Virus record (IMG/VR): IMGVR_UViG_3300044644_001556
Strand: one strand, 5' to 3'
Source: a virus
Length of the DNA stretch: 64,000 nt
Part shown: one piece after another, positions 6,506 through 62,215 of the stretch
Position numbering within the stretch: the stretch's first letter is position 1
Layout of the letters: each line of letters begins with the position of its first letter
Position numbers and translations under genes: made by a program
The notes under the pieces: generated by a model
The model's input: only the letters and a program-made list of their open reading frames with translations
Database searches by the model: none
What the model was told of the DNA's origin: nothing

Positions 6506-7567
6506 TTAGATACCGAAGAATGCTTGATCTGGATTACTAAATGCACTTAATAATGGTGCAGTATTTAAATTATGCGATTTATTATTATTAGCTGGAAATA
6601 ATAAGCCGTTAGCTAATCGTTGTAATGCTCCGGATGTACTTTCTTCCGTCTCTGCAGTATGAGTACTTAATTCCGTTGCTAAATTATAACAATCAAATTG
6701 AGTTAAATGACCTTTTACTTGAGCGGCGATATTTTTATCTTGGAAAACATTATCTTGATAATAATCACGCAGATGAATAATTGGATCACTAATTTTCATA
6801 ATAGCATCTAATCTACGAACTTCGGCTGCACTATTAGATATTGCTCTTCTAGCTGCCGCATGTTTAGTTACTAACTGTAGATCAGATACCATTGCTCTTT
6901 CACGACCCATAATACTCAATCGATCGCGGACTAAACTACTTACTTTATTTTGCATTTGAATATTTGCAATTTGTAAATGTTCTTCCCAACGATTAACTAA
7001 TGGAATACGACTATTAATTAATTCCGTACTACCTACCATTCCATTAGTACAAATCTGACGCACTAACTCAAATGATCCTTTAATAAATGAAGTAAACGGA
7101 TTCCAATTAAAAATCATATTCGAAGTAAAATCTCCACCTTGTTGATAACCAGGAACGTCAAAATCTTGAGCACTCCATTTTTTCATTAACATATAATCCG
7201 ATGGAACAGTATTTAACCGCAATCCAGATCTGATATTACGTTCGTTTGTACTAACTCCAATATGAGCCATTAAATTATCAATGGCATTATCATCATGAAC
7301 AAAGCCGTTATATCCATTATCTCGAAAATCAATTAATTGATCTTCTACGAAAAAATAATTACCGCCAGTTAATCTCGCTTGCAATTGACTAGTAGCTAAC
7401 TCAATATGCGGACTATTTAAAGCTTTTGAAATGCGTGAAGTTGAATCGAATAAATGCTCATGAGCTCCATTGATTACGATATGAGCTTGTACGTTACCAG
7501 CTTCATCAAAAACGTTAGATAATTTTACATCTGCATTGCGGTATAATGAATAATTTTGTTGGTTCAT
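6506..7567 (-). CDS. DUF932-like protein
   Basis: LVRQICTNGM motif resembling DUF932 (R..C.NG). Confidence 0.55.
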   Translation of the reverse strand: MNQQNYSLYRNADVKLSNVFDEAGNVQAHIVINGAHEHLFDSTSRISKALNSPHIELATSQLQARLTGGNYFFVEDQLIDFRDNGYNGFVHDDNAIDNLMAHIGVSTNERNIRSGLRLNTVPSDYMLMKKWSAQDFDVPGYQQGGDFTSNMIFNWNPFTSFIKGSFELVRQICTNGMVGSTELINSRIPLVNRWEEHLQIANIQMQNKVSSLVRDRLSIMGRERAMVSDLQLVTKHAAARRAISNSAAEVRRLDAIMKISDPIIHLRDYYQDNVFQDKNIAAQVKGHLTQFDCYNLATELSTHTAETEESTSGALQRLANGLLFPANNNKSHNLNTAPLLSAFSNPDQAFFGI

Positions 7568-7628
7568 AATAATTAACTCCGATACGTTGTTATATAAATT
7601 TAAATTGGTTATTTGTTACTACAAAGAA

Positions 7629-11071: not shown

Positions 11072-11311
11072 TTAACCGATAGCAATCGTTTCAATCATTA
11101 ATTGATTTTTAAATGATCTGATATTTACAAAAATTTCACGATCGACTAAAACTCGTTCTAATAATTCGCATTCATATAAACCAGGATTAATATCACTAAA
11201 TCTTAATTTACGACCCTGATCAGATTTTCGGTTATCTGGTAATGCATGATCACCAAATAATTCAGTTACTAAGTTACGGATAATGGTTGTTGTGTTTTGG
11301 TTAGTAGTCAT
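11072..11311 (-). CDS. small protein, GRRLKF paralog family
   Basis: TT.IR..V...NRK..GRKLRF. Confidence 0.6.
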   Translation of the reverse strand: MTTNQNTTTIIRNLVTELFGDHALPDNRKSDQGRKLRFSDINPGLYECELLERVLVDREIFVNIRSFKNQLMIETIAIG

Positions 11312-11338
11312 ATTAATCTCCAGATAGGTTAGTTTAAA

Positions 11339-11557
11339 TTAACGATTTTCTAATTCAATTAGTTTATATGCTTTACCGTTCTTAAATGCAAAAAACCCAA
11401 CATTTGATTTATGAATCAATAAGTAATTGGCATCAACATGTACGTAATAACTAAAGCCGGTAATAATAGTTCCCAAAAACAAACCGATTATAATACCCCA
11501 AGAACCGGCTTTAATTTCATTGGAAGTATAACTTGGTAATTTTTCGCCCTTTTCCAT
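11339..11557 (-). CDS. small membrane protein
   Basis: One TM segment; start revised to MEKGEK (SD AGGAG, promoter upstream). Confidence 0.65.
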   Translation of the reverse strand: MEKGEKLPSYTSNEIKAGSWGIIIGLFLGTIITGFSYYVHVDANYLLIHKSNVGFFAFKNGKAYKLIELENR

Positions 11558-22132: not shown

Positions 22133-22207
22133 TGGAGATCCGTATCGGATTTGAACCAACACCTCAAGGCTTTGCAGGCCTGTGCACTACCATTATACTA
22201 ACGGATC
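22133..22207 (-). tRNA. tRNA-Cys(GCA)
   Basis: Cloverleaf, GATCCGT/ACGGATC acceptor, U73, CCA. Confidence 0.88.
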
Positions 22208-22212
22208 GAATT

Positions 22213-22287
22213 TGGCATGCCAGTAAGGATTTGAACCCTAATCTCAAGGCTTTGGAGGCCCGTATGCTACCGTTACACCACTGACAT
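22213..22287 (-). tRNA. tRNA-Trp(CCA)
   Basis: Cloverleaf, anticodon loop CTCCAAA, G73, CCA. Confidence 0.88.
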
Positions 22288-22329
22288 ATAAATTTACTAT
22301 TGATTAATTTAAATTTAAAAAAGTATTTA

Positions 22330-22405
22330 GGGGCGAACGGCGGGACTTGAACCCGCAACCTCTCGAATCACAATCGAGGACGTCTACCAATTCCGCCACG
22401 TCCGC
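22330..22405 (-). tRNA. tRNA-His(GTG), no encoded G-1 or CCA
   Basis: Cloverleaf, loop TTGTGAT, C73; flanks form an extra 10-bp stem. Confidence 0.8.
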
Positions 22406-22509
22406 ACCTAAATACTCTTAAAAAATAATGCCCGACCGTACCACGGAAACCTTCTCGAGTTTCGATTTCCATACTAAACTATCTTACGATATAGTTCTGC
22501 GGTAATAGA

Positions 22510-22584
22510 TGGAGCCCCATTCCGGAATCGAACCGAAATCTAAAGATTACAAGTCAATTGTAATAACCATTATACTAATAGGGC
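22510..22584 (-). tRNA. tRNA-Thr(TGT), weak anticodon stem
   Basis: Acceptor, D and T arms intact, CCA; two U-U mismatches in the anticodon stem. Confidence 0.75.
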
Positions 22585-22605
22585 GAATGATATATTTATA
22601 TAGGT

Positions 22606-22640
22606 TGCGGTATCGGTTAAAATTTAGACCGATACCGCAT
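22606..22640 (-). terminator. hairpin downstream of pmoC
   Basis: tgcggtatcggt...accgataccgca. Confidence 0.6.
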
Positions 22641-22662
22641 TTAAACTACGAGTTAATTACGA

Positions 22663-23421
22663 CTAAGCAGCTAAATCAGCTTTCAATAATCTAGCAATTG
22701 CTTTAACTTCAATATTTACAACACCTAATACACCTAATGCGGCCCATCCGAAGAATACGAAGCCGTAGTGTAAAGGAGCAACAAATAATTCTTCCATAAA
22801 CCAGAAAGTGTGACCCCATTCATTCAAACCTACGTTTGGAAGAATCATGAAAGGTCCAATTACTGATACCATGTACTGTAATGGCAAACCTTGTTGATAG
22901 GTTGGCAATCTTGTTTTTGCATATAAGAAAGATGCAACACCAGTAATGATATAGATTGGGTAGCTCAAATAGAATTCAATAACATGACTTGGAGTGAAGT
23001 CAGTGTCACGAACGATAGTTTGATGCCATGTACCATCTTGTTCTGTAAAGTAAGAAGCACCGTAATAAATTGCGATACCGTACATTACCAACCATACCCA
23101 GTGTGTAAAATGACGACGTAATTCTTCGCGTGGTGTGATCGACATTACTTTACGATCACGACTTTTCCAGATATATCCCCATAATACTGAAGCGGTTACG
23201 ATTTCTAGAACCATTTCAATATAAAGGAAGTTCATCCAGTATGTTTCGAATTCTGGTGCAAATGAGTCTAAACCAGCTGACCAACCGTAAACTCCTTCAT
23301 ACCAACGAACCCAACCGTAGAATACAACATAAAGTGCAGCACCAGCGAACATATTTTTTTTGTTTAAAAGTGGTGCTTCTGTAACTGACGATACAACGTC
23401 TGATTTAATTGTAGCTGACAT
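22663..23421 (-). CDS. pmoC: particulate methane monooxygenase subunit C (phage auxiliary metabolic gene), gammaproteobacterial type
   Basis: GLDSFAPEFETYWMN, EQDGTWHQTIVRDTDFTPSH, GLNEWGHTFWFMEELFVAPLHYGF; GGGAG SD. Confidence 0.97.
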   Translation of the reverse strand: MSATIKSDVVSSVTEAPLLNKKNMFAGAALYVVFYGWVRWYEGVYGWSAGLDSFAPEFETYWMNFLYIEMVLEIVTASVLWGYIWKSRDRKVMSITPREELRRHFTHWVWLVMYGIAIYYGASYFTEQDGTWHQTIVRDTDFTPSHVIEFYLSYPIYIITGVASFLYAKTRLPTYQQGLPLQYMVSVIGPFMILPNVGLNEWGHTFWFMEELFVAPLHYGFVFFGWAALGVLGVVNIEVKAIARLLKADLAA

Positions 23422-23489
23422 TATAATTCTCCCAAAGGAAATTTAAATATTGAATCCAATAAATTTGAATCATGACAAGCCATTTATAA

Positions 23490-23727
23490 TAACCTAGTAT
23501 TTTACTAGGTTAATTATCCTACATTCTTCCCCTAGGTGATTCATACAAAAATAGCTTAAAGTATGAATCAATGTAGGCATCGATACTAATTACATCTCAT
23601 AAGATGTAATTATAACTCATTATTAGCAATCGATGGTATAAATCTTCCGTGATGGATTTGTGTCGCTAAATCGAGCTATTAATAAATGATTGATACCGTA
23701 GTATCAATCTATTAGCATTTATTTATA
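23490..23727 (-). ncRNA. highly structured pmoC 5' leader (candidate)
   Basis: At least five 8-11 bp stems incl. a C(UACG)G tetraloop on the minus strand; TATAAATA at 23720-23727. Confidence 0.5.
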
Positions 23728-23771
23728 ATCTATTATAGATATTGTTTTAATAAAAATTTAGTAATTTTAAA

Positions 23772-24389
23772 TTAGCAATTCCATTTTTTTAAAGCTAATG
23801 CTTTACGAGTAGGTTTGCCGTGTTCATCCTTCATCGGACCTTTTACACCACCCATTCGTGCACAAAAGCTTTTACGTCTTTTGTAAGCTTTACTGCCTTT
23901 TTTTAATTTACTAGGTTTAGTGGTTACTGCAGTCTGTAATTTACTACCAGGATGTGCTCTGCGATAACTAGCAACACCTTTTGCATTTAACCCACCATTT
24001 TTATTTTTGCCTTCTTTTCGAGTCCATGCTGCAGCTTCAAAAAGTTCTTGGTCACTAACCGATTCAAAATCAGCCCAAATTATTTCACTATCAACACCAT
24101 GGTGTATAGCTAAATTTTCAACCATATCTTCGATAAGGTCAAACATTTCATTGACTGTTGGATTAATACCGCGTTGTTCTTGACTCTGCAAATAATCCCA
24201 AACCGATACTAACATATTTTCGGCATTAGCGATTTTTTCTTGAGCCCATTCTGGTAAATTTTCGTTGCGATCGATGGTTCGCATTAGACCTGAGGCTGCT
24301 CGAGAAATAGTTATTAAATGACCGTGAGCTGTACCAGCTTCGTCATTATACTCAGAATCGGAACCTTCAAATAATTCATTTAATTTCAT
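23772..24389 (-). CDS. MKLNELFE-tagged protein with conserved T4-like-phage C-terminal domain (GGLN.KG...SFCARM...WNC; DUF6321-like, tentative)
   Basis: Motifs; CATAAATA at 24418-24425. Confidence 0.7.
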   Translation of the reverse strand: MKLNELFEGSDSEYNDEAGTAHGHLITISRAASGLMRTIDRNENLPEWAQEKIANAENMLVSVWDYLQSQEQRGINPTVNEMFDLIEDMVENLAIHHGVDSEIIWADFESVSDQELFEAAAWTRKEGKNKNGGLNAKGVASYRRAHPGSKLQTAVTTKPSKLKKGSKAYKRRKSFCARMGGVKGPMKDEHGKPTRKALALKKWNC

Positions 24390-24443
24390 ACATAGTTACC
24401 TTTTGTTGTGTTTGAGATATTTATGTACGAAATTAAACATTTA

Positions 24444-24518
24444 TGGCTCCCTAGGATGGATTCGAACCACCGACCAGACGATTAACAGTCGTCGGCTCTG
24501 CCACTGAGCTACTAGGGA
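24444..24518 (-). tRNA. tRNA-Asn(GTT)
   Basis: Cloverleaf, loop CTGTTAA, G73, CCA. Confidence 0.9.
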
Positions 24519-24530
24519 ATATATTTTATA

Positions 24531-24647
24531 TAACTAGATTCTATTTATTTCAAATACTCTACCAACTGAGCTACGCGAGGCTTTAATTCACGGTCGGAAT
24601 CGAACCGACGACACTTTGATTCGCTAAATTTTTTGCTGTTAGAATCT
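24531..24647 (-). ncRNA. circularly permuted tRNA-like RNA (T arm - closed acceptor - D arm) in an ACAGCAA scaffold
   Basis: GTCGG-TTCGATT-CCGAC precedes TAGCTC-AGTTGGTA-GAGT; CGTGA/TCGCG, TCAAA/TTTGA and AGATTCTA/TAGAATCT pairings. Confidence 0.7.
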
Positions 24648-24762
24648 TATTTAATTATTATACTTGACTTATTCTAATATATCAAGCATTAATTATCTCA
24701 TTTGAATTAATCTACCTATAAACCTAATTCTACCTCAATTAAAGGTTGATATTGATTATAAT

Positions 24763-24852
24763 TGGTGGAAGAGAAGAGATTCGAACTCTTGGACCCCTCT
24801 CGGAGCCGGCGGTTTTCAAGACCGCTGCCTTAAGCCACTCGGCCACTCTTCC
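24763..24852 (-). tRNA. tRNA-Ser(TGA)
   Basis: Long variable arm, loop CTTGAAA, CCA. Confidence 0.9.
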
Positions 24853-24865
24853 ATTTGTTATGTCA

Positions 24866-25051
24866 TTACAGAAAAGCTAAACTAATACTGGCGATACCTT
24901 CAATTAAAATCTCAGTAAAATCAGATGAGTTATTCGATGTTTTTTGTTGTTTGGTATTTTTAATATGCGTATCGATATAAGATTTAACTTCATCTCGTGG
25001 CATATCACCCACATCAATATAAAATATTTTTCTTTCAATCACATCATTCAT
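24866..25051 (-). CDS. 61-aa peptide resembling a T4-type portal (gp20) segment
   Basis: ERKIFYIDVGDMP....SYI; AGGAG SD; start revised to exclude tRNA overlap. Confidence 0.6.
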   Translation of the reverse strand: MNDVIERKIFYIDVGDMPRDEVKSYIDTHIKNTKQQKTSNNSSDFTEILIEGIASISLAFL

Positions 25052-25071
25052 ATTAATACTCCTAATATATT

Positions 25072-25145
25072 TGGCAGTCTCTACAGGGCTCGAACCTATA
25101 CTAACACAGTCAAAGTGTGTTGTGCTACCATTACACAAAGAGACA
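25072..25145 (-). tRNA. tRNA-Gln(TTG)
   Basis: Cloverleaf, loop CTTTGAC, G73, CCA. Confidence 0.88.
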
Positions 25146-25152
25146 ATAATCT

Positions 25153-25237
25153 TGGTGCGAATAGACAGAATCGAACTGTCACGCCCGAAGGCAATAGATT
25201 TTAAGTCTACAGCGTCTACCAGTTCCGCCATACTCGC
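25153..25237 (-). tRNA. tRNA-Leu(TAA)
   Basis: Variable arm, loop CTTAAAA, CCA. Confidence 0.9.
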
Positions 25238-25245
25238 TTTATAAT

Positions 25246-25331
25246 TGGTGGGTAAGGTAGGATTCGAACCTACTCAGCCAAAGGCGACAGATTTACAGTC
25301 TGCTGCGACTCTCCCACTTCGCCGCTTACCC
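25246..25331 (-). tRNA. tRNA-Tyr(GTA)
   Basis: Variable arm, loop CTGTAAA, CCA. Confidence 0.9.
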
Positions 25332-25337
25332 GATATT

Positions 25338-25414
25338 TGGTCTCCCATGAAGGATTTGAACCTCCGACCTGTCCGCCCCAAACGGACCGCCCTACCAGAC
25401 TGAGCTAATGGGAG
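25338..25414 (-). tRNA. tRNA-Pro(TGG)
   Basis: Cloverleaf, loop TTTGGGG, CCA. Confidence 0.9.
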
Positions 25415-25430
25415 AAAATTAATCTTTTAT

Positions 25431-25820
25431 TTATAACAACTTAAGGTGCTTGGTTAAAAAATCGATATTATCTGGATAATCAGGCCCTATCGCTAAACAA
25501 GTTAGTGTAGGAATTCCATTAAATTCAGTTAATCCAGCATCGGTTATTAACTTAACATTAACATTTGCGGCTAATGTATTATCATAAATTTCTAATAATT
25601 CTGCTTCGCTATCTACCGAAACACATATTTTTGTAAATAAGCCATTAATCCATTGTTCAAGTGCGTAATTCTCAGTAAGATTAATTTCTATGCGATCATC
25701 ATTATAAGATCTATAATTTAAAACTGCTCCCATTGACGCATGAGCTACTTGGGCTGCAATTTTACCTTTGCGCATATTAAGATCTTTACGAACTACGATT
25801 ACTTGTTTTGGTAATGTCAT
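25431..25820 (-). CDS. pth2: peptidyl-tRNA hydrolase, Pth2 family
   Basis: KQVIVVRKDL.M.KGK.AAQ.AHA, DAG.TEF.G..T.TCLAIGP. Confidence 0.92.
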   Translation of the reverse strand: MTLPKQVIVVRKDLNMRKGKIAAQVAHASMGAVLNYRSYNDDRIEINLTENYALEQWINGLFTKICVSVDSEAELLEIYDNTLAANVNVKLITDAGLTEFNGIPTLTCLAIGPDYPDNIDFLTKHLKLL

Positions 25821-25835
25821 ATTTATTCCGTTAAT

Positions 25836-25922
25836 TGGCGGAAGGTATAGGATTCGAACCTATACAACGATTTCTCGTTGACGGATTAGCAATCCGCTCT
25901 ATTACCATTCTAGCAACCTTCC
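25836..25922 (-). tRNA. tRNA-Ser(GCT)
   Basis: Long variable arm, loop TTGCTAA, G73, CCA. Confidence 0.9.
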
Positions 25923-25930
25923 GTTTATTT

Positions 25931-26129
25931 CTAACAAGATACATTTTAATTTCGCCAATGAAAGTTTTTGAAATTGCTGTTAGTATCTTTAAATTATCTA
26001 GATATCATCTTTCAATTATAAAATTGATATCTATAACTCGGAGTGAGTTTTATTTTTTTTAAAAATCCATTTTAACTAGATACATTTTAATTTCGCCAAT
26101 GAAAGTTTTTGAAATTGCTGTTAGTATCT
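25931..26129 (-). repeat. two identical 52-nt ACAGCAA-scaffold small RNAs (25937-25988 and 26078-26129)
   Basis: AGATAC-TAACAGCAA...TTTC-ATTGGC-GAAA...GTATCT; same ends as 24531..24647. Confidence 0.75.
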
Positions 26130-26180
26130 AAATTTGATACTAAGAAAGTAAATAATTCACTTTCTTAATAAATTAAAGAT

Positions 26181-26209
26181 ATTATATATTAAGATATCTT
26201 TAATGTCAA
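26181..26209 (-). promoter_or_regulatory. consensus sigma70 promoter for the repeat/tRNA cluster
   Basis: TTGACA-17-TATAAT. Confidence 0.75.
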
Positions 26210-26550
26210 TCTTTTTTTTAATACTTAGGTTAATCTTTAAAAATATTAATTATAATTTTAGCAATATCTAACAGTCCGAGTATTGAAAATCGCAATAATA
26301 TTATGGGCCATCCGAAAACGCTAGCAACTCGCATCAGTTAAATGTTTTAATATATAGTCTTCATCGTGGAAATAGATCTGTAACATATCTTGATCCGATT
26401 CGATAGTCCAATCAGCTAAATCAACATCTTGGTTTGATATATCTATATTTTCGACTGTTATTTTATTATTCATCTAATTTCTGCATTAACGAAATATTTG
26501 GTGATTAAGGTATTCCTATTGTTAGGTTCTAATAAAACAGCTAGAATTTT

Positions 26551-26713
26551 ACTATCATACATCTCCACTAGTGGGACTTGAACCCACGCCCGATATTGTC
26601 CGGTAGCCGGCATGTTCATGCATCCGAACATCGTAAGGTCTACTCCTCCCATGGCTCTAACCAACTGAGCTATAGTGGAGATGTATGATAGTGCTTGTCT
26701 TTCCAAGCCGTCA
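26551..26713 (-). ncRNA. GGAAAGAC-head unit with 20-bp stem enclosing a tRNA-like domain
   Basis: Inverted repeat 26551-26570/26673-26692; D arm TAGCTCAGTTGGTTAGAGC and T arm GTGGGTTCAAGTCCCAC; ~65-nt insert in place of the anticodon arm. Confidence 0.7.
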
Positions 26714-26727
26714 TGAAGGTCTCCGTT

Positions 26728-26848
26728 ACTATCAATAATTGCCACCGCAAGGAATCGAACCTAGATTTACCGGTTTGTTAGCAAGTTGCCTTACACCATT
26801 TAGACGACAATAGCAATTATTGATAGTGCTTGTCTTTCCAAGCGGTCA
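26728..26848 (-). ncRNA. GGAAAGAC-head unit with 15-bp stem enclosing a degenerate tRNA-like domain
   Basis: Inverted repeat 26728-26742/26813-26827; T arm AGGTTCGATTCCT. Confidence 0.65.
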
Positions 26849-28361: not shown

Positions 28362-31199
28362 TTAGACACCAGGTGTTGTACTAGCACTAACTAAACTATC
28401 TAAACTAGTACCCACTGAGTTAGTAGCAGTTACTGTAAATGTATACGCAGTTCCGTTAGTTAATCCGGTTACTGTAATTGGCGATGCAATTCCAGTAGCT
28501 GTTATATTATCAGGATTTGATGTTACGGTATAACTAGTAATTGCACTACCACCATCGTTAGCTGGCGGAGTAAATTCTACCGTTACTTCAGCATCGCCAT
28601 TAATAGTAGTAATTATACTTGGAGCATCGGCGATAGTCACCGGAGTTACTCCACCACTTGGTAAACTTGCAGCACTAACACCAACTGAGTTAGTAGCGGT
28701 TACTGTAAATGTATACGCAGTTCCGTTAGTTAATCCGGTTACTGTAATTGGTGACGCAGTTCCAGTAGCTGTTATATTACCAGGATTTGATGTTATGGTA
28801 TAACCAGTAATTGCACTACCACCATTGTTAGTTGGTGGCGTAAATTCTACCGTAGCTTGGGCATTACCGACAACAATATTACCTACAGTTGGGGCGTCAG
28901 CGATAGTTGCTGGTGCTATCGGGGCGATACTAGAGCTAGCTGTGCTTGCAGCACTAACACCAACTGAGTTAGTAGCGGTTACTGTAAATGTATATGCAGT
29001 TCCGTTAGTTAATCCAGTTACCGTAATTGGCGATACAGTTCCAGTAGCTGTTATATTGCCGGGATTTGATGTTACTGTATAACCGGTAATTGTACTACCA
29101 CCATTGTTAGTTGGTGGAGTAAATTCAACTGTTACTTCGGTATTACCAGCAACTACATTACCAATGGTCGGTGCAGCAGCTACCGTAATTGGAACAATTG
29201 GAGTAATACTAGAGCTAGCGGCACTAGCAGTACTGATACCAATTGCGTTAGTCGCAGTTACTGTAAATGTATATGCTGTTCCGTTAGTTAAACCAGTTAC
29301 TATAATAGGAGACGAAGTTCCTACTGCTGTTATATTGCCGGGATTTGATGTTACCGTATAACTAGTAATTGCACTACCGCCATTGTTAGTTGGCGGTGTA
29401 AATTCTACGGTTACTTCGGCATTACCGACAGTCGCAGTTCCAATAGTTGGTGCACCAGCTACAGTAATTGGTATCACTGGGGTTATACTATTACTTGCTG
29501 CACTTGCAGCACTAACACCAACTGAGTTAGTAGCGGTTACTGTAAATGTATATGCAGTTCCGTTAGTTAATCCAGTTACGGTAATTGGTGATGCAGTTCC
29601 GGTAGCTGTTATGTTACCCGGATTTGATGTTACGGTATAACCAGTAATTGCACTGCCGCCATCATTAACTGGAGGTATAAATTCAACAGTAGCTTGAGTA
29701 TTACCGACAGTCGCAGTTCCAATAGTTGGTGCATCAGCTACAGTAATTGGTATCACTGGGGTTATACTATTACTTACTGCACTTGAGTTACTAGTACCAG
29801 CTAAATTAACAGCAGCAATTGTAAATGTATACGCCGTTCCTGTTGTTAAACCAGTCACCGTAATAGGTGAAGTTAAGCCAGAAGCTGTTATATTACCGGG
29901 ATTTGAAGTCGCTACGTAACTAGTAATTGTACTTCCGCCGTCATTAACTGGCGGATTAAATCCAACTGTTGCTGAGGTAGGAGTAGCCATAACCGCCGTT
30001 CCGATAATTGGTGCATCGGCGATAGTAATCGGCGTTACTGAATTACTTGGGATACTAGATGGACTAGATCCGGCTGCATTAACAGCAGAAACAGTAAATG
30101 TATAAACTGTTCCGTATGTTAACCCAGAAATCATAGTCGGCGATGAACTATCAGTTATCGTTATATTGCCTGGGTTTGATGTTACGATATAATTTGCTAT
30201 AGCACTGCCGCCTGTATTTGCGGGTACGGTATAAGTTATAGTTGCTGTGTTATTATTTAACGCCACGTTCGTTATCGATGGTGCAGTCGGTATAGTAATT
30301 GGCGTAATACTAGCACTAGCAGTACTTACTGAACTTACGCCGACTGAGTTAGTTGCGGTTATAGTAAACGTATATGGAGTCCCGTTAGTTAAACCAGAAA
30401 CCACTATAGGTGATGCAGTTCCAGTAGCCATTATATTTCCTGGATTTGAGGTTACCGTATATTGAGTTATTACGGCTCCGCCATTATCCATTGGGGGTGT
30501 AAATTCTATGGATGCTTGAGCATTACCTCCGGTGACTGTATTAATACTTGGTGCGCCCGGTATAGTATTTGGTCGGAATGGAGTTATACTATTGCTCGGT
30601 AAACTAGCTGGGCTGTTGCCGCCAGCATTGATAGCAGAAACAGTAAAAGTATACGGTATTCCGTTAGTTAAACCAGTTATTACAATAGGAGACTCAGTAC
30701 CTGTTGCCGTTATATTACCAGGTATTGATTTTACTAAAAATCCAGTAATTGGATTTCCTCCGTCGTAATATGGTTCCGCGAACGAAACTGTAGCTCTCGC
30801 ATCGCCAACGACCGCTACGACTGAAGTTGGAGCATCAGATACGGCCGGTAATTTTATACCGATTGCGTATTCTACGGTAATTGGATCAGTCGAATCAGTT
30901 GATATACTAATAGTTGTTTCGGCACCGTCGTAAGCGAATAATTTAGTAGTAACAGGTATCGATTGACTAGTCGTTACGTCAATCAAATCACTACTTAGTA
31001 TAACGCCGGCTCCGAGATTACCTAATACCATAGGACTATCAACATTAGTTAAATCTACAGAACCGATGGTATAACTACCGAACGGTAACTGCATATTACT
31101 AGCGATAATTCTATTCGTAGTTATACGACCATAGGCATTCTCGGTTTTAAGATCTGAGTTAAAATCAACTGCCAACGTAGTTGGGTTTCTTATCGCCAT
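28362..31199 (-). CDS. protein with nine tandem fibronectin type III domains (likely virion surface/adhesion)
   Basis: Nine ~93-aa repeats P..P.I......A.V.F.PP..GG..IT.Y...GLTNGT.YTFTV.A.N..G; CATAAATA at 31226-31233. Confidence 0.88.
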   Translation of the reverse strand: MAIRNPTTLAVDFNSDLKTENAYGRITTNRIIASNMQLPFGSYTIGSVDLTNVDSPMVLGNLGAGVILSSDLIDVTTSQSIPVTTKLFAYDGAETTISISTDSTDPITVEYAIGIKLPAVSDAPTSVVAVVGDARATVSFAEPYYDGGNPITGFLVKSIPGNITATGTESPIVITGLTNGIPYTFTVSAINAGGNSPASLPSNSITPFRPNTIPGAPSINTVTGGNAQASIEFTPPMDNGGAVITQYTVTSNPGNIMATGTASPIVVSGLTNGTPYTFTITATNSVGVSSVSTASASITPITIPTAPSITNVALNNNTATITYTVPANTGGSAIANYIVTSNPGNITITDSSSPTMISGLTYGTVYTFTVSAVNAAGSSPSSIPSNSVTPITIADAPIIGTAVMATPTSATVGFNPPVNDGGSTITSYVATSNPGNITASGLTSPITVTGLTTGTAYTFTIAAVNLAGTSNSSAVSNSITPVIPITVADAPTIGTATVGNTQATVEFIPPVNDGGSAITGYTVTSNPGNITATGTASPITVTGLTNGTAYTFTVTATNSVGVSAASAASNSITPVIPITVAGAPTIGTATVGNAEVTVEFTPPTNNGGSAITSYTVTSNPGNITAVGTSSPIIVTGLTNGTAYTFTVTATNAIGISTASAASSSITPIVPITVAAAPTIGNVVAGNTEVTVEFTPPTNNGGSTITGYTVTSNPGNITATGTVSPITVTGLTNGTAYTFTVTATNSVGVSAASTASSSIAPIAPATIADAPTVGNIVVGNAQATVEFTPPTNNGGSAITGYTITSNPGNITATGTASPITVTGLTNGTAYTFTVTATNSVGVSAASLPSGGVTPVTIADAPSIITTINGDAEVTVEFTPPANDGGSAITSYTVTSNPDNITATGIASPITVTGLTNGTAYTFTVTATNSVGTSLDSLVSASTTPGV

Positions 31200-51982: not shown

Positions 51983-52011
51983 ATTATACTACTAATAAAC
52001 ATAATTGTCAA
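51983..52011 (-). promoter_or_regulatory. consensus sigma70 promoter
   Basis: TTGACA-17-TATAAT. Confidence 0.7.
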
Positions 52012-52298
52012 ACCACATCTCTTACTGCTCGAACAAAATAGCGGACACTCTTGGGAGTGGGATACTGAGTGCCTGACATACTCTGATATAATGCACCGTA
52101 ACCGCCATCGGTCTCAGTAGACGACCAGTAACCTAAACCAACTAAATCGTTTTCTAATTGATATATTTCTTTTAATTCATCTGTGGTTGGCAATCGCCAA
52201 TCATTCTTCCCATCTATGGCTAGAAATGAACAATATAGTTTAGCATCATCCCAATTAGCAATAATCTCTGTTTCTTTAGGTGCTATTTTAAAATTCAT
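52008..52298 (-). CDS. DUF1566 protein with VR-like C-terminus
   Basis: NWDDAK.YC...WRLPT..EL..IY...YWSSTE...FVRAVR. Confidence 0.82.
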   Translation of the reverse strand: MNFKIAPKETEIIANWDDAKLYCSFLAIDGKNDWRLPTTDELKEIYQLENDLVGLGYWSSTETDGGYGALYQSMSGTQYPTPKSVRYFVRAVRDVV

Positions 52299-52636
52299 GA
52301 TAAACTCCGAACTGCTCTAACATAGCTGCTAGAATCCTTACTATTGTAGCCTTGATTACCATGCAACATACCCTGCTTCCAAGCACCCCAACCATCGACC
52401 TCAACCGCGGACCAGTAATATGAATCAATGAAATCATGTTCCGAATTATAGATCTGGGTTAATTCTTCTAATGTAGGTAACCTCCAATCTCTATGACCAT
52501 CTATTTCTAGAAATGAACAATATAAATTAGCTTCGGTCCAGTCGGCTTTTATCTCGGTCGATTTAGGCGCTATATCTATAGTAATAACAAATACCAAGTT
52601 TGTACTCTGAAACTTTAATCTACCTATTTCTATCAT
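52295..52636 (-). CDS. DUF1566 protein with VR-like C-terminus
   Basis: YWS..E....AW.Q....G.Q....K....YVRAVR. Confidence 0.82.
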   Translation of the reverse strand: MIEIGRLKFQSTNLVFVITIDIAPKSTEIKADWTEANLYCSFLEIDGHRDWRLPTLEELTQIYNSEHDFIDSYYWSAVEVDGWGAWKQGMLHGNQGYNSKDSSSYVRAVRSLS

Positions 52637-55648: not shown

Positions 55649-56767
55649 CTATTGTGTTCGAACCGCTCTAACATAAAATTTATATAATGTAGCTGACGTA
55701 TATGAACTCTGCTTTGATTTAAACCAACATTGTACCGATGCAGTTCCGTATTTACTTTTTACTTGTTCACCCCAGTAAATATCGTTATACTCATCCATCA
55801 ATTTATATTTAGAACTAGATTGAATAGTCGCTAAATTTTTAATCATCAATTCCATTTCGTCTTTAGTTGGTAACCGCCAATCATTATGACCACCATAAGT
55901 TAGATTATTACAATATTCATCTGCTTCTGGCCATGTTAATTGTTTTTGAGTCTCTATAGGACTCAATATCAAAGTCTTACCGTCAATCTCACCTACTACT
56001 AAACCACCACCTTGCTCTACCTTTTTTGTTGGTTTTAAATGTGGCTTATCTGTATACACCTTATTTAAAATAAGATCGATCTTTTTGATATATTTTGTTG
56101 AAGTAAAGAACCCTTGCGATTTTTCTCCATCATGAATAACGCCGGTTTGTTGTGGTTCACTTATATATGCATAACCTAATTGTCTTAATATAATATTAGT
56201 ATCAACGGTTTGGGTATCCTTAGTTACATTAACGACCTTTTGTGTCTCAGGATTAACTGCCTTCACCGGCTGTCTATTCGGATTTAATTTAGGTATGAAA
56301 TGTATTAAATGCCAAAATGAATCAAACGTATTAACCATCCCGAACGCGTTTTTCTCATTCATGATTTTATAACCAGCATCAACATCATATCCCAATTTCC
56401 GCAATTTAGTTTCATCGGCCCGCATATCATCCATCGTATACTTTGAGATATCTGATATAAATCGCTGACCCTGCCCGTTATATTTAATAACATGTATATA
56501 CGGCATACTAGCTCCGTATGTAAATGTTTTTGATAAATCTGAGGTTTCGTTTAATTTATACTGTTCCCAAAATGTTTTTAATGGGTAAAAATATATCCCA
56601 ATCGGCGTAGTCCATGAGCTTTTTGGATATACCCCAAGTTTGATAATAGGTGAAAAATGTATAAAAATATTTGGATCATCTTTATACTTCATTAATTGCT
56701 GTGCTGCAGATACCCGTAAGTTCTGTTCTGGATTTCGTCGAGCTTCGAATAACTCACTTAATTTCAT
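55649..56767 (-). CDS. MKLSELFE-tagged protein with C-terminal DUF1566 domain, late-promoter gene
   Basis: LTWPEA..YC..L.YGGHNDWRLPT..E...YW...YVRAVR; TATAAATA at 56795-56802. Confidence 0.78.
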   Translation of the reverse strand: MKLSELFEARRNPEQNLRVSAAQQLMKYKDDPNIFIHFSPIIKLGVYPKSSWTTPIGIYFYPLKTFWEQYKLNETSDLSKTFTYGASMPYIHVIKYNGQGQRFISDISKYTMDDMRADETKLRKLGYDVDAGYKIMNEKNAFGMVNTFDSFWHLIHFIPKLNPNRQPVKAVNPETQKVVNVTKDTQTVDTNIILRQLGYAYISEPQQTGVIHDGEKSQGFFTSTKYIKKIDLILNKVYTDKPHLKPTKKVEQGGGLVVGEIDGKTLILSPIETQKQLTWPEADEYCNNLTYGGHNDWRLPTKDEMELMIKNLATIQSSSKYKLMDEYNDIYWGEQVKSKYGTASVQCWFKSKQSSYTSATLYKFYVRAVRTQ

Positions 56768-59346: not shown

Positions 59347-59634
59347 TCATATATCCCTTACAGCACGCACGTAGTGGCCGCTATAGTCCTTATCGTCGAA
59401 GCCCACGTAGCTATTAGTTAGATTCTGAATCCAGGCGCCGTCGCTATCATCATCAGTAGAGGACCAGTAGTAGTCATTAGTAAAATTATTTTTAGATTGG
59501 TATATCTCATGCAATTCTTCTATTGTAGGCAATCTCCAACCTTTCTTTCCAGCTACTTCTAAAAAGGTACAATATATCTTAGCATCATACCAGTTAGCTT
59601 TGATTGCTGTTTCTTTAGGCGCTATTTCAAACAT
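59347..59634 (-). CDS. DUF1566 protein with VR-like C-terminus
   Basis: YYWSSTDDDSDGAWIQNL...K....YVRAVR; GC-rich NNY codons. Confidence 0.85.
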   Translation of the reverse strand: MFEIAPKETAIKANWYDAKIYCTFLEVAGKKGWRLPTIEELHEIYQSKNNFTNDYYWSSTDDDSDGAWIQNLTNSYVGFDDKDYSGHYVRAVRDI

Positions 59635-59855
59635 ACGTCTCTCACAGGCACTACAGATAAAAATATACCATCATTTTTAATATTAACGTCATCGCACCAC
59701 CAGGACATCAACTGAATATGATCCAAATTTATCCATTCCTCTTCGGTTGGCATACGCCAATCTCTATAACCATCATACTCCAGAAATTGACAATATAATA
59801 ATGCGTCATCATATGTCATTAGATTCTCTGTCTCAGGCGCAATCTCTACCGTCAT
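59622..59855 (-). CDS. DUF1566-like mini-protein
   Basis: Family motif; N-terminus nearly identical to 48078..48320. Confidence 0.78.
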   Translation of the reverse strand: MTVEIAPETENLMTYDDALLYCQFLEYDGYRDWRMPTEEEWINLDHIQLMSWWCDDVNIKNDGIFLSVVPVRDVCLK

Positions 59856-59886
59856 AATGCATACCATGTTTTGTTACAACAAAGAT

Positions 59887-59915
59887 ATTATAACTCATAC
59901 TTGATAATAGATCAA
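59887..59915 (-). promoter_or_regulatory. early promoter
   Basis: TTGATC-17-TATAAT plus leader. Confidence 0.7.
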
Positions 59916-59984
59916 GTACTATTGTACATCTTTTACCGAACCATACTTACTTGTTTATACCTGTAGTAATTTACTTTATAATAA

Positions 59985-60266
59985 TTAACATACTAACGCC
60001 ATTGACCTTTGGGATATAGTAGCTATTGCTATCGTATATTCATCATTAGACATATCCCTCACCGGACAAACTTCACGCCAAACTTTACTAACACCCACCC
60101 TATCAATATACCACCCGACTCTAGAGTTAAGCAATTCCTCGGAGAAATATTCATCAAACGTAGGCATTCGCCAATCATTATGCCCATCGTGTCTACAAAA
60201 TACGCAATATAATATTGCTTCTTCATATGGCATTATAATTCCAGATCTAGGTGCTACTGCTATCAT
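59985..60266 (-). CDS. DUF1566-like mini-protein
   Basis: Family motif. Confidence 0.78.
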   Translation of the reverse strand: MIAVAPRSGIIMPYEEAILYCVFCRHDGHNDWRMPTFDEYFSEELLNSRVGWYIDRVGVSKVWREVCPVRDMSNDEYTIAIATISQRSMALVC

Positions 60267-60478
60267 ACATCCCTTACCGGCGTCACTGTGTGTTTGACGT
60301 ACATTATTAATGGGATGGAATTATTATGCCATCCCCATATGTTATATCGATAATCACTCCACTCTTCTTTCGTCGGCATTCGCCAGTCCGTATGACCATT
60401 ATAGGTACAAAATTGACAATATAATATTGCTTCTTCATATGCCATTTCGTTTTTAGATATTGGTGCAAATTGTATCAT
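60263..60478 (-). CDS. DUF1566-like mini-protein
   Basis: Family motif; start revised. Confidence 0.78.
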   Translation of the reverse strand: MIQFAPISKNEMAYEEAILYCQFCTYNGHTDWRMPTKEEWSDYRYNIWGWHNNSIPLIMYVKHTVTPVRDV

Positions 60479-60702
60479 ACATCCCTCACCGGTAATACGT
60501 AATAAGCTAACCAAGGTATTAACATTCCGGTATGCCAACATCTAGCTGTTCGAACTTGATCAACATACATCTGCCAATAATGGTATTCTTCTGTAGTAGG
60601 TATTCTCCAATCTCTGTGACCATTATATTCTAAAAATTGACAATATAATATAGCCTCATCGTGATATAGATAGTTATTAAATACTGGCGCATATTCTAAC
60701 AT
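60475..60702 (-). CDS. DUF1566-like mini-protein
   Basis: Family motif; start revised. Confidence 0.78.
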   Translation of the reverse strand: MLEYAPVFNNYLYHDEAILYCQFLEYNGHRDWRIPTTEEYHYWQMYVDQVRTARCWHTGMLIPWLAYYVLPVRDV

Positions 60703-60899
60703 ACCTCCCTCACTGGCACTACGGTGTACTGACCGCTTGCAGGATCGTTTAAATACCATCCAGAAATATCAAACTCGTAATATTCATCAAATGTAGTCAT
60801 TCGCCAATCCCTATGTCCATTATAATCACAAAATGAACAGTATAATATCGCTTCATCATATGTCATATACTTTTCTGATCTTGGTGCAAATTCTATCAT
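60696..60899 (-). CDS. DUF1566-like mini-protein
   Basis: Family motif; start revised. Confidence 0.78.
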   Translation of the reverse strand: MIEFAPRSEKYMTYDEAILYCSFCDYNGHRDWRMTTFDEYYEFDISGWYLNDPASGQYTVVPVREVC

Positions 60900-61105
60900 A
60901 CATCCCTCACCGGGCAAACTTTCCATTTTGATACCCACTCACTACTTCTACAGACATACCATCCAGAAATACCTATAACATCCATATATTCAGCTCGATC
61001 AGGTAATCGCCAATCCCGATGCCCGTTATAATCTAAAAATGCACAATATAATACAGCTTCTTCATACGTCATTTCGTGATCGGATATTGGGGCTACTTCT
61101 AACAT
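60896..61105 (-). CDS. DUF1566-like mini-protein
   Basis: Family motif; start revised. Confidence 0.78.
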   Translation of the reverse strand: MLEVAPISDHEMTYEEAVLYCAFLDYNGHRDWRLPDRAEYMDVIGISGWYVCRSSEWVSKWKVCPVRDV

Positions 61106-61201
61106 ATATCTCTCGGTGTATATTGGTAAACTCAATGCTCTTACACTATCGGAGTAAGTATACTCCCGAGTTGATTTAATTTGTAAAAGATTATTGGTAT
61201 A

Positions 61202-61909
61202 TTAAATACTCCGAACTGCGCGAACATAGTTGCCGTTAAACTTATTACCATGCCCCTGATAGCCGTCGGACATATCCTGTCTCCAAGCGCCATTACTAAC
61301 GCCCTCAGTACCCGACCAGTAGTTGTCCTTAATAAAATCATTATTAGATTCATAGATTTGATTTAATTCTTTTTTAGTTGGTAATCTCCAGCCATCTCCT
61401 AATGATTTTACATATTCAACAGCTTCATACCAAGTCATCATTTTTTCCGGCGACCGTGTCGCAATTTCAAACGGCAAGGTTGGGTTTTGTTTAACTATAT
61501 CTCTTACTGCTCTAACGTAGGCGCTGTAACCCTTGAAGAAGTTGAACTGATTGCCATCGGACAAATTCTGACCCCAGGCGCCGTCGCCACTGCCCTCTGT
61601 AGACGACCAGTAGTAGTCCTTAGTAAAATCATTTTCAGAATTATATATTTCATGCAATTCTTCAATAGTCGGAAGACGCCATCCTTCTCCTAACGATTCA
61701 ATATATGCAACCGCATCATTCCAATTCATCTTTTTTGTTGTAGCTTTATCAGCAATTTCAAATGGTAAATCTGATTTGTATTTTATCATGATAGGTTTTA
61801 CAACATCTAAATTTAACTGCAGTAATTTGATAAATTCTTCCACTTGTTCTCTGGAAATATTATTAACCGCATCCCAGGAATAAGTTTCTGATTTTCTAAT
61901 ATTAAACAT
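61202..61909 (-). CDS. tandem two-domain DUF1566 protein, both domains with VR-like C-termini
   Basis: 2x LPFEIA...M.W..AV.Y..SLG.GWRLPT..EL..IY...YWS.TE...AW.Q....G.Q....K....YVRAVR. Confidence 0.88.
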   Translation of the reverse strand: MFNIRKSETYSWDAVNNISREQVEEFIKLLQLNLDVVKPIMIKYKSDLPFEIADKATTKKMNWNDAVAYIESLGEGWRLPTIEELHEIYNSENDFTKDYYWSSTEGSGDGAWGQNLSDGNQFNFFKGYSAYVRAVRDIVKQNPTLPFEIATRSPEKMMTWYEAVEYVKSLGDGWRLPTKKELNQIYESNNDFIKDNYWSGTEGVSNGAWRQDMSDGYQGHGNKFNGNYVRAVRSI

Positions 61910-61956
61910 TTTTAATATTTCCTTTTAATAAATTGATTATCTAATACAACAAATAT

Positions 61957-61985
61957 ATTATAACAAAAAAAGACATCCATGTCCA
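61957..61985 (-). promoter_or_regulatory. early promoter (TGGACA variant)
   Basis: TGGACA-17-TATAAT plus ATATTTGTTGTAT. Confidence 0.72.
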
Positions 61986-62215
61986 GCCATTTGTTTACTT
62001 ACCACATACCGCACTATAACCAATAATAATCGATTGTAAATTCATCTGATCTAACACTACAGTCTTTTCTTGCTTTGATTTTAAACAATCAGCAATTGAA
62101 TCAAAATTAAAGGTTAATATAGTTGGTGGGGTTGATAAATGAAATGTTAATGCGATTACTAATTTAATCATTTTTGCTTTTCCTATTTAGTTAAGTTATC
62201 TGATACAACAAATAT

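Follow-up and report, generated by a model that had tools for sequence, protein, structure and literature searches.

Probable orphan relics of diversity-generating retroelement variable regions in the lectin-fold genes of a T4-like pmoC phage

Why do several small lectin-like genes of an AT-rich phage genome end in GC-rich patches whose codons avoid adenine, and did a retroelement write them? The question is raised by IMG/VR record IMGVR_UViG_3300044644_001556, from an uncultured, T4-like, pmoC-carrying phage of lake origin, of which we analysed a stretch of 64,000 nucleotides (the window; GC about 31–33%, almost every gene lying on the minus strand). Five full-length domains of the Lcl_C/DUF1566 family in this window carry such patches at their 3' ends, and the original prediction took them for current or past products of a diversity-generating retroelement (DGR), a system that copies a template repeat (TR), with errors at adenines, into the variable region (VR) of a target gene. 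Our analysis retains the past and not the present of that claim: with a probability of about 0.62, the five patches are orphan relics of DGR VRs. The codon signature and the pattern in relatives speak for a former DGR, while the failure to find a reverse transcriptase (RT) or template, the fixed alleles and the synonymous drift speak against a current one.

The patch comprises the last ~37 codons of each domain, from a YW(S/T) motif to VRAVR. Family membership is established by PF07603 scores of 95, 58.3, 43.5, 47.5 and 47.7 bits against a curated cut-off of 34.9, and the profile match spans each patch up to its final position (117/117), which places the patches at the C-terminal end of a C-type-lectin (CLec) fold, the location of a DGR VR. 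The 235-aa protein, the largest of the patch-bearing products, also matches the C-terminal domain of Legionella Lcl (PDB 8q4e; residues 75–136, E 2e-5). Whereas Lcl is an adhesin of bacteria that bears a collagen-like stalk, the phage domain occurs singly or in tandem, preceded by a short leader.

Base composition sets the patches apart from the rest of the genes that contain them. Their GC content is ~50%, against ~33% for the remainder of the same domains; in 45-nt windows it reaches 0.5–0.64 in the 3' ends of both domains of the gene at 61202–61909 and of the gene at 59347–59634, with a weaker rise at 52008–52298 and 52295–52636, as originally described, compared with 0.2–0.4 in the 5' halves of the same domains. 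Because loop residues such as Tyr, Asn and Asp are encoded only by codons ending in C or T (NNY), we tested synonymous choice alone, pooling the five patches and taking the 22 long open reading frames (ORFs) of the window as background. Third-position A falls to 0.10 from 0.35 in the background (p 8e-15), and C/(C+T) at third positions rises to 0.46 from 0.19, with 59 C-ending codons where 23.4 are expected once amino acids are controlled for (z 8.2). The K, Q, E, L(TTR) and R(AGR) codons divide 21 G to 7 A in the patches and 178 to 1175 in the background (p 4e-13), and four-fold families end in A in 15% of cases against 34% (p 3e-4). The predicted NNY bias relative to other genes is thereby borne out, including at the synonymous level.

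Third-position T, in contrast, is unchanged in the patches (0.36). Only third-position A is lowered, and the bias is therefore one of adenine avoidance rather than a mark of GC-rich origin; import from a GC-rich donor was rejected on this ground. Nor is the signature a property of the fold, since a sixth Lcl_C domain in the window, our internal control, does not have it: like the N-terminal halves of the five domains, it follows background codon usage (GC 0.34, third-position A 0.44, C/(C+T) 0.12 and, among codons ending in a purine, 9 A to 2 G in the region equivalent to the patch, 55658–55777). The domain 1 codons quoted in the original prediction are present in the sequence as written. Between GAG and GTT, 21 of them end in C or T, and the five others (W, Q, L, Q and K) lie on or near conserved alignment columns, the K being invariant and one Q nearly so, in keeping with the proposed division into a fixed framework and variable NNY codons. 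NNY codons in the loops together with synonymous adenine avoidance in the scaffold, both confined to the patch, make up the signature of a DGR VR; this signature is real, patch-specific, far beyond chance and not an amino-acid effect.

Table 1. Lcl_C/DUF1566 genes of the window, their VR-like patches, the internal control and the downstream inverted repeat
Feature	Position in the window	Strand	Supporting data
235-aa gene: 47-aa leader and two tandem Lcl_C/DUF1566 domains	61202..61909	-	Pfam PF07603 E 4.8e-27, in two stretches
Domain 1 VR-like patch (YWSSTEGSGDGAW...YVRAVR), strongest signature	61502..61612	-	GC 0.53 vs 0.33 in N-half; C/(C+T) 0.68, p 1.3e-7
Domain 2 VR-like patch	61211..61321	-	GC 0.52; third-position A 0.06; C/(C+T) 0.38
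Single-domain Lcl_C gene, 95 aa; patch 59356-59469	59347..59634	-	Pfam E 1.2e-15; patch GC 0.50, third-position A 0.05, C/(C+T) 0.57
Single-domain Lcl_C gene, 96 aa; weaker patch 52020-52130	52008..52298	-	Pfam E 4.4e-11; third-position A 0.18, C/(C+T) 0.38
Single-domain Lcl_C gene, 113 aa; weaker patch 52307-52417	52295..52636	-	Pfam E 2.6e-12; third-position A 0.08, C/(C+T) 0.29
Internal control: 372-aa protein with C-terminal Lcl_C domain; equivalent region 55658-55777	55649..56767	-	Pfam E 2.3e-12
Short inverted repeat downstream of stop codon	61149..61169	-	6-bp stem, -4.3 kcal/mol, z -0.9

That domains of this kind are DGR targets is evident from relatives, for which we assembled a comparison set of 79 IMG/VR loci. 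Six of these (L067, L073, L077, L079, L080 and L084) contain a template repeat and two VRs that differ from it almost only at adenines, and an RT gene (Pfam RVT_1) lies in the same records, the match in the record of L067 being below the curated cut-off. In the first five of the six, both VRs lie in tandem DUF1566 domains of one protein, the same layout as in the 235-aa protein; the verified VRs share the low third-position A. To separate template-written pairs from ordinary paralogues, we counted the differences at codon positions 1, 2 and 3. The cleanest verified VR pairs differ by 10, 10 and 3, by 13, 8 and 2, and by 5, 8 and 1, compared with 19–26 third-position differences in the N-terminal halves of those pairs; other verified pairs show up to 7 differences at the third position. 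L003, a 77%-identical orthologue of the 235-aa protein, gives 10, 9 and 3 between its two patches and 14, 7 and 19 between its N-terminal halves. In L014 (the same as L170), four patches spread over 11 kb (502–615, 7205–7318, 7472–7585 and 11228–11341) share all scaffold codons, with one pair differing by 11, 11 and 0, and were clearly written from one template; the 45.8-kb record, rated 25% complete, contains neither RT nor template. Homologues with the leader MFNIRK... vary in the patch mainly at loop positions, mostly in residues encoded by NNY codons. Because of this variation and of the codon-position pattern in L003 and L014, we conclude that a DGR wrote this protein family in relatives.

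Within the window, domains 1 and 2 differ by 18, 7 and 14 in the patches and by 11, 5 and 14 in the N-terminal halves. As third positions differ as much in the former (14/37) as in the latter (14/40), the two domains share no template, and the codons of the domain 2 patch have in part returned to the usage typical of the genome. The YVRAVR codons differ among all five patches, one of which is a codon longer. Sets of VRs identical at non-adenine sites, synonymous ones included, were found in L003 and L014 and not in the window, in agreement with the earlier suggestion that the copies either had different templates or are old.

The most serious alternative, which we nevertheless regard as unlikely, holds that no DGR was ever involved: the loops would simply favour Tyr, Asn, Asp, Ser and Gly, which NNY codons encode, and the codon bias would stem from selection (on translational accuracy or nucleic-acid structure, for example) or from repeated exchange of segments with donors of other composition. 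A make-up rich in Tyr, Ser, Gly and Asn is usual at binding sites, whole C-terminal segments are demonstrably exchanged between these genes (see below), and the same bias is seen in most phage genomes that have such domains but no RT, among them complete ones with no template. The bias survives amino-acid control, however, and reaches the K, Q and E codons of the scaffold, which encode conserved residues. It is directed against adenine and not towards GC, with third-position T unaltered, and the exchanged tracts include the AT-rich WRLP...NDF part of the domain, which is at background. Finally, selection alone would rarely yield the zero to three third-position differences beside ~20 at positions 1 and 2 that are seen in L003 and L014.

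If a DGR did write the patches, is its machinery still present? The window is the final 64 kb of a 144,806-bp contig (as implied by the window offsets and the longest contig), and a 99.8-kb JGI Lake Mendota contig extends 30 kb beyond the window's end; the genome is therefore at least ~175 kb long, of which ~113 kb were examined as DNA and a further 9 kb as a gene table only. Pfam scans of 10 of the window's 24 ORFs of at least 150 aa revealed no RVT_1 domain, nor did the called genes of the flanks (to −30.7 kb on one side of the window and +27 kb on the other), and tblastn with five DGR RTs as queries detected no RT in the ~113 kb; both methods recovered the RT in positive-control records. 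Matches of the same queries to patches in the window and in two other phage genomes (G035 and G022) trace to the template portion that the stop-to-stop query ORFs include, and are not RTs.

The search for a template was equally negative. In the window and flanks blastn-short returned paralogues only, a 60-nt pattern allowing the patch base or A at codon positions 1 and 2 matched only itself, and sliding scans that required each TR base to be the VR base or A found no compatible segment in the window, L085, L089, L092, L129 or L131. The template-compatible pattern of domain 1 had 0 matches in IMG/VR and in 185,579 species genomes, as did a domain 1 scaffold pattern with free loop codons, and that of the 59347 patch had 0 matches in the 185,579 species genomes, the only collection in which it was run. 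A metagenome scan with the template pattern left the patch itself unmatched, which means that the collection lacks the phage's contig and that the scan has no bearing on its genome. The original prediction had suggested targeting in trans and had proposed looking for an RT and for a repeat differing from a patch only at adenines. Across the ~113 kb neither turned up, relatives' records yielded no RT or template for these patches, and the suggestion finds no support in the larger collections either.

A GC-rich hairpin shortly after the last patch had also been put forward. The inverted repeat does exist at 61149–61169, yet 37 of 200 shuffled sequences fold as well, the repeat is not conserved in L003, the closest relative, and no terminator-like site was found there. 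Being no better than shuffles and not conserved, it was rejected as a DGR target-recognition element. An initiation of mutagenic homing (IMH) sequence, the other GC-rich element expected at or after the 3' end of a VR, is definable only against a TR.

Are the patches, then, still being rewritten? The exact 235-aa protein occurs on 19 contigs (JGI, NCBI, ENA and Logan) with no variant at 90% identity or above, its 90% cluster consisting of a single sequence. Hypervariation of the patches between closely related genomes was not observed, with one exception in the related locus L135. Relative to its L135 orthologue, the 52008 patch has 10 synonymous and 3 nonsynonymous codon changes, the mark of ordinary purifying selection, and the 52295 patch differs from its counterpart by one base. 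The exception is the 59347 patch (59356–59469), whose core differs from the syntenic L135 orthologue (L135:3972–4271) by 10 nonsynonymous and 1 synonymous changes and a one-codon indel; its first 13 codons, which include codons of the mutated type, are nearly unchanged (one synonymous change). This difference fits an allele replacement or a partial rewriting after the lineages split.

Recombination has left clear traces. Over ~56 codons, starting at GWRLP and reaching the loop end, domain 1 is ~98% identical to L003 (window 61430–61690 against L003:949–1662), whereas the flanks of this tract are ~83% identical. Similarly, the 59347 patch is identical to L134 at 114 of 114 nt (window 59356–59530 against L134:10001–10291), whereas 27 nt differ in the 55 codons that precede it, the N-terminal part being ~16% divergent; at the protein level the identical tract starts at WRLP. 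Both mosaics begin at the conserved GWRLP motif, and the C-terminal two-thirds of a domain is therefore exchanged as a unit.

From these data we infer that a DGR wrote the patches in the past. In an ancestor or a donor phage, it would have copied a template repeat into the patch positions, reverse transcription misreading adenines. Such writing would leave NNC and NNT codons at ligand-binding positions and adenine-avoiding choices, such as GAG, CAG, AAG, TCG and GCC, in the scaffold. The present lineage would be without the enzyme and a matching template, as far as examined, and the patches would be passed on like any other coding sequence, with homologous recombination from GWRLP carrying them between genes and phages. 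Their codons would slowly revert to the genome's AT-rich usage, with domain 1 and the 59347 patch probably the freshest, and domain 2 and the 52008 and 52295 patches older.

It seems improbable that the patches are instead live DGR targets, served by an RT and a template that are encoded by a co-infecting phage, by a Methylococcales host or by the remaining, unexamined third of this genome. Targets that do not adjoin the cassette are known for DGRs, in phages mostly at distances below 50 kb (PMC5758913), and L014, with its four one-template patches and no detected machinery, offers a possible instance; the excess of nonsynonymous over synonymous change in the 59347 patch relative to L135 would also suit a live target, and about 30% of the genome is unread. 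Nevertheless, the scaffolds of the five patches differ from one another synonymously, and one patch differs in length, such that a single template cannot serve them all, and the template-compatible patterns of domain 1 and the 59347 patch went unmatched in the collections searched with each. The 235-aa allele is identical on contigs from several projects, the 52008 patch drifts synonymously, and the 3' end of domain 1 has regained A-ending codons (AGA GCA GTA AGA). As a weaker point, first-pass notes on three other windows mention no RT. Chance or an assembly artefact can be dismissed, the p-values being 1e-12 to 1e-15 and the same sequence having been assembled independently in many samples.

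A number of observations nonetheless weigh against regarding the patches as relics of a lost DGR, and our confidence stays near 0.6 mainly because the signature is widespread in genomes with no RT. An RVT_1 match is absent from 47 of another 50 IMG/VR records that contain domains of this type, and the near-complete genomes G013, G041, G035 and G022 (two of them with terminal repeats) carry a strong signature with neither RT nor template. The second-closest relative, G002 (IMGVR_UViG_3300044644_001125, loci L112–L128; 327 kb, 92% complete), has 28 DUF1566 domains with VR-like ends of varied signature strength, many of them arrayed at 236.8–240.3 kb and 324.4–325.8 kb, and no RVT_1 match or template was found in it; a template candidate at 239612–239728 proved to be another paralogous patch, ending in YGRAIR. 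No RT and no template lie within reach of the 120 such regions in 79 metagenome loci, and the signature occurs in ~44% of AT-rich metagenome patches and ~56% of IMG/VR patches. Either orphaning is very common, or a force other than a DGR maintains the signature. Because neither template nor RT was found, the DGR origin rests on the signature and the relatives and not on a TR/VR pair, and ~53 kb of the genome is outside all searches, besides the 9 kb known as a gene table. Moreover, the burst of change between the 59347 patch and L135 could reflect diversification more recent than a fossil implies.

The genomic setting of the lectin genes is that of a large T4-like phage. The window encodes pmoC/AmoC, 12 tRNAs, NAD-salvage genes, an RNA ligase and a helicase, and the T4-type genes gp55, UvsW, gp26/gp51 and portal are listed up to 66 kb upstream in first-pass notes on neighbouring windows; the lectin-gene region itself has no match in GenBank phages or IMG/VR. 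Upstream of the 235-aa gene, intergenic spacers of ~80 nt are repeated between small genes (61921–62001, and L001 1–10000 beyond the window's end), and the copy at 61957–61985 contains a promoter close to consensus (TGGACA and TATAAT spaced by 17 nt, and an upstream TG). A blastn-based finder flagged AT-rich intergenic repeats in L001 as TR/VR pairs, but these are such repeated promoter-like spacers, not templates. The pmoC/AmoC gene (22663–23421, Pfam E 1.3e-120) lies within the cluster of 12 tRNA genes (22133–26815), one of which (26739–26815) received an odd four-base anticodon call (aaca). Further along, a 945-aa protein with about nine fibronectin type III repeats (28362–31199) lies in the window's only GC-rich island (GC 0.42 against about 0.31). 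Some 20 kb beyond the window's end, the gene array switches strand at an AT-rich stretch of 1.5 kb that has no called genes (L085 7214–8782), a candidate origin or divergent promoter region. On the other side, ~22–28 kb before the window's start, the gene table lists six consecutive genes of 299–339 aa with no Pfam match, which by their sizes look like a tandem paralogue set.

How do the patches compare with known systems? DUF1566 VRs belong to the CLec2, or category 'd', targets of DGRs, together with DUF823 and Fib_succ_major, Legionella LdtA being an example (Wu et al. 2018, PMC5758913). The patches resemble these targets in domain, in their position at the C-terminal end up to VRAVR, in their NNY loops and in their adenine-avoiding scaffold; unlike those systems, they have no common template, and no RT, Avd or template repeat was found with them. 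The scaffold itself reads AW.Q...G.Q....K....YVRAVR here and AW.V.F..G.V.......CVRAVR in the verified cassettes. As in the DGR of Bordetella phage BPP-1, where the diversified protein is the receptor-binding tip, the fold is that of a C-type lectin, the VR-like region is 3'-terminal, and an adenine-specific logic explains the codons. In BPP-1, however, the entire cassette (mtd VR, avd, TR, brt) stands beside the target along with a GC-rich target-recognition hairpin, whereas no cassette accompanies the patches described here and the inverted repeat is weak and unconserved. What is unusual is only the absent machinery and the setting in the mini-gene array of a pmoC phage, and no new mechanism is revealed; a literature search for DGRs in pmoC phages returned no paper.

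Within a single genome, adenine avoidance measured under amino-acid control separates written from unwritten Lcl_C domains, and the test can be used to detect past DGR activity after the RT and the template have been lost. Should the patches still be rewritten by a non-adjacent DGR, whether its genes lie in the third of the genome that was not examined, in the host methanotroph or in a co-infecting element, which we consider rather improbable, a T4-like phage would be borrowing hypermutation for a library of lectin genes; more broadly, tips written by DGRs may circulate among RT-less phages as ready-made binding modules, which would explain the signature in at least five near-complete RT-less phage genomes. 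As orphan relics, in contrast, the patches tie the full-length members of the phage's large repertoire of lectin mini-genes to DGR targets and suggest a plausible origin for that repertoire, in which binding tips were once hypermutated, and later became fixed and were reshuffled by recombination. The large phages with orphan DGR regions would then include a T4-like, pmoC-carrying phage of methanotrophs.

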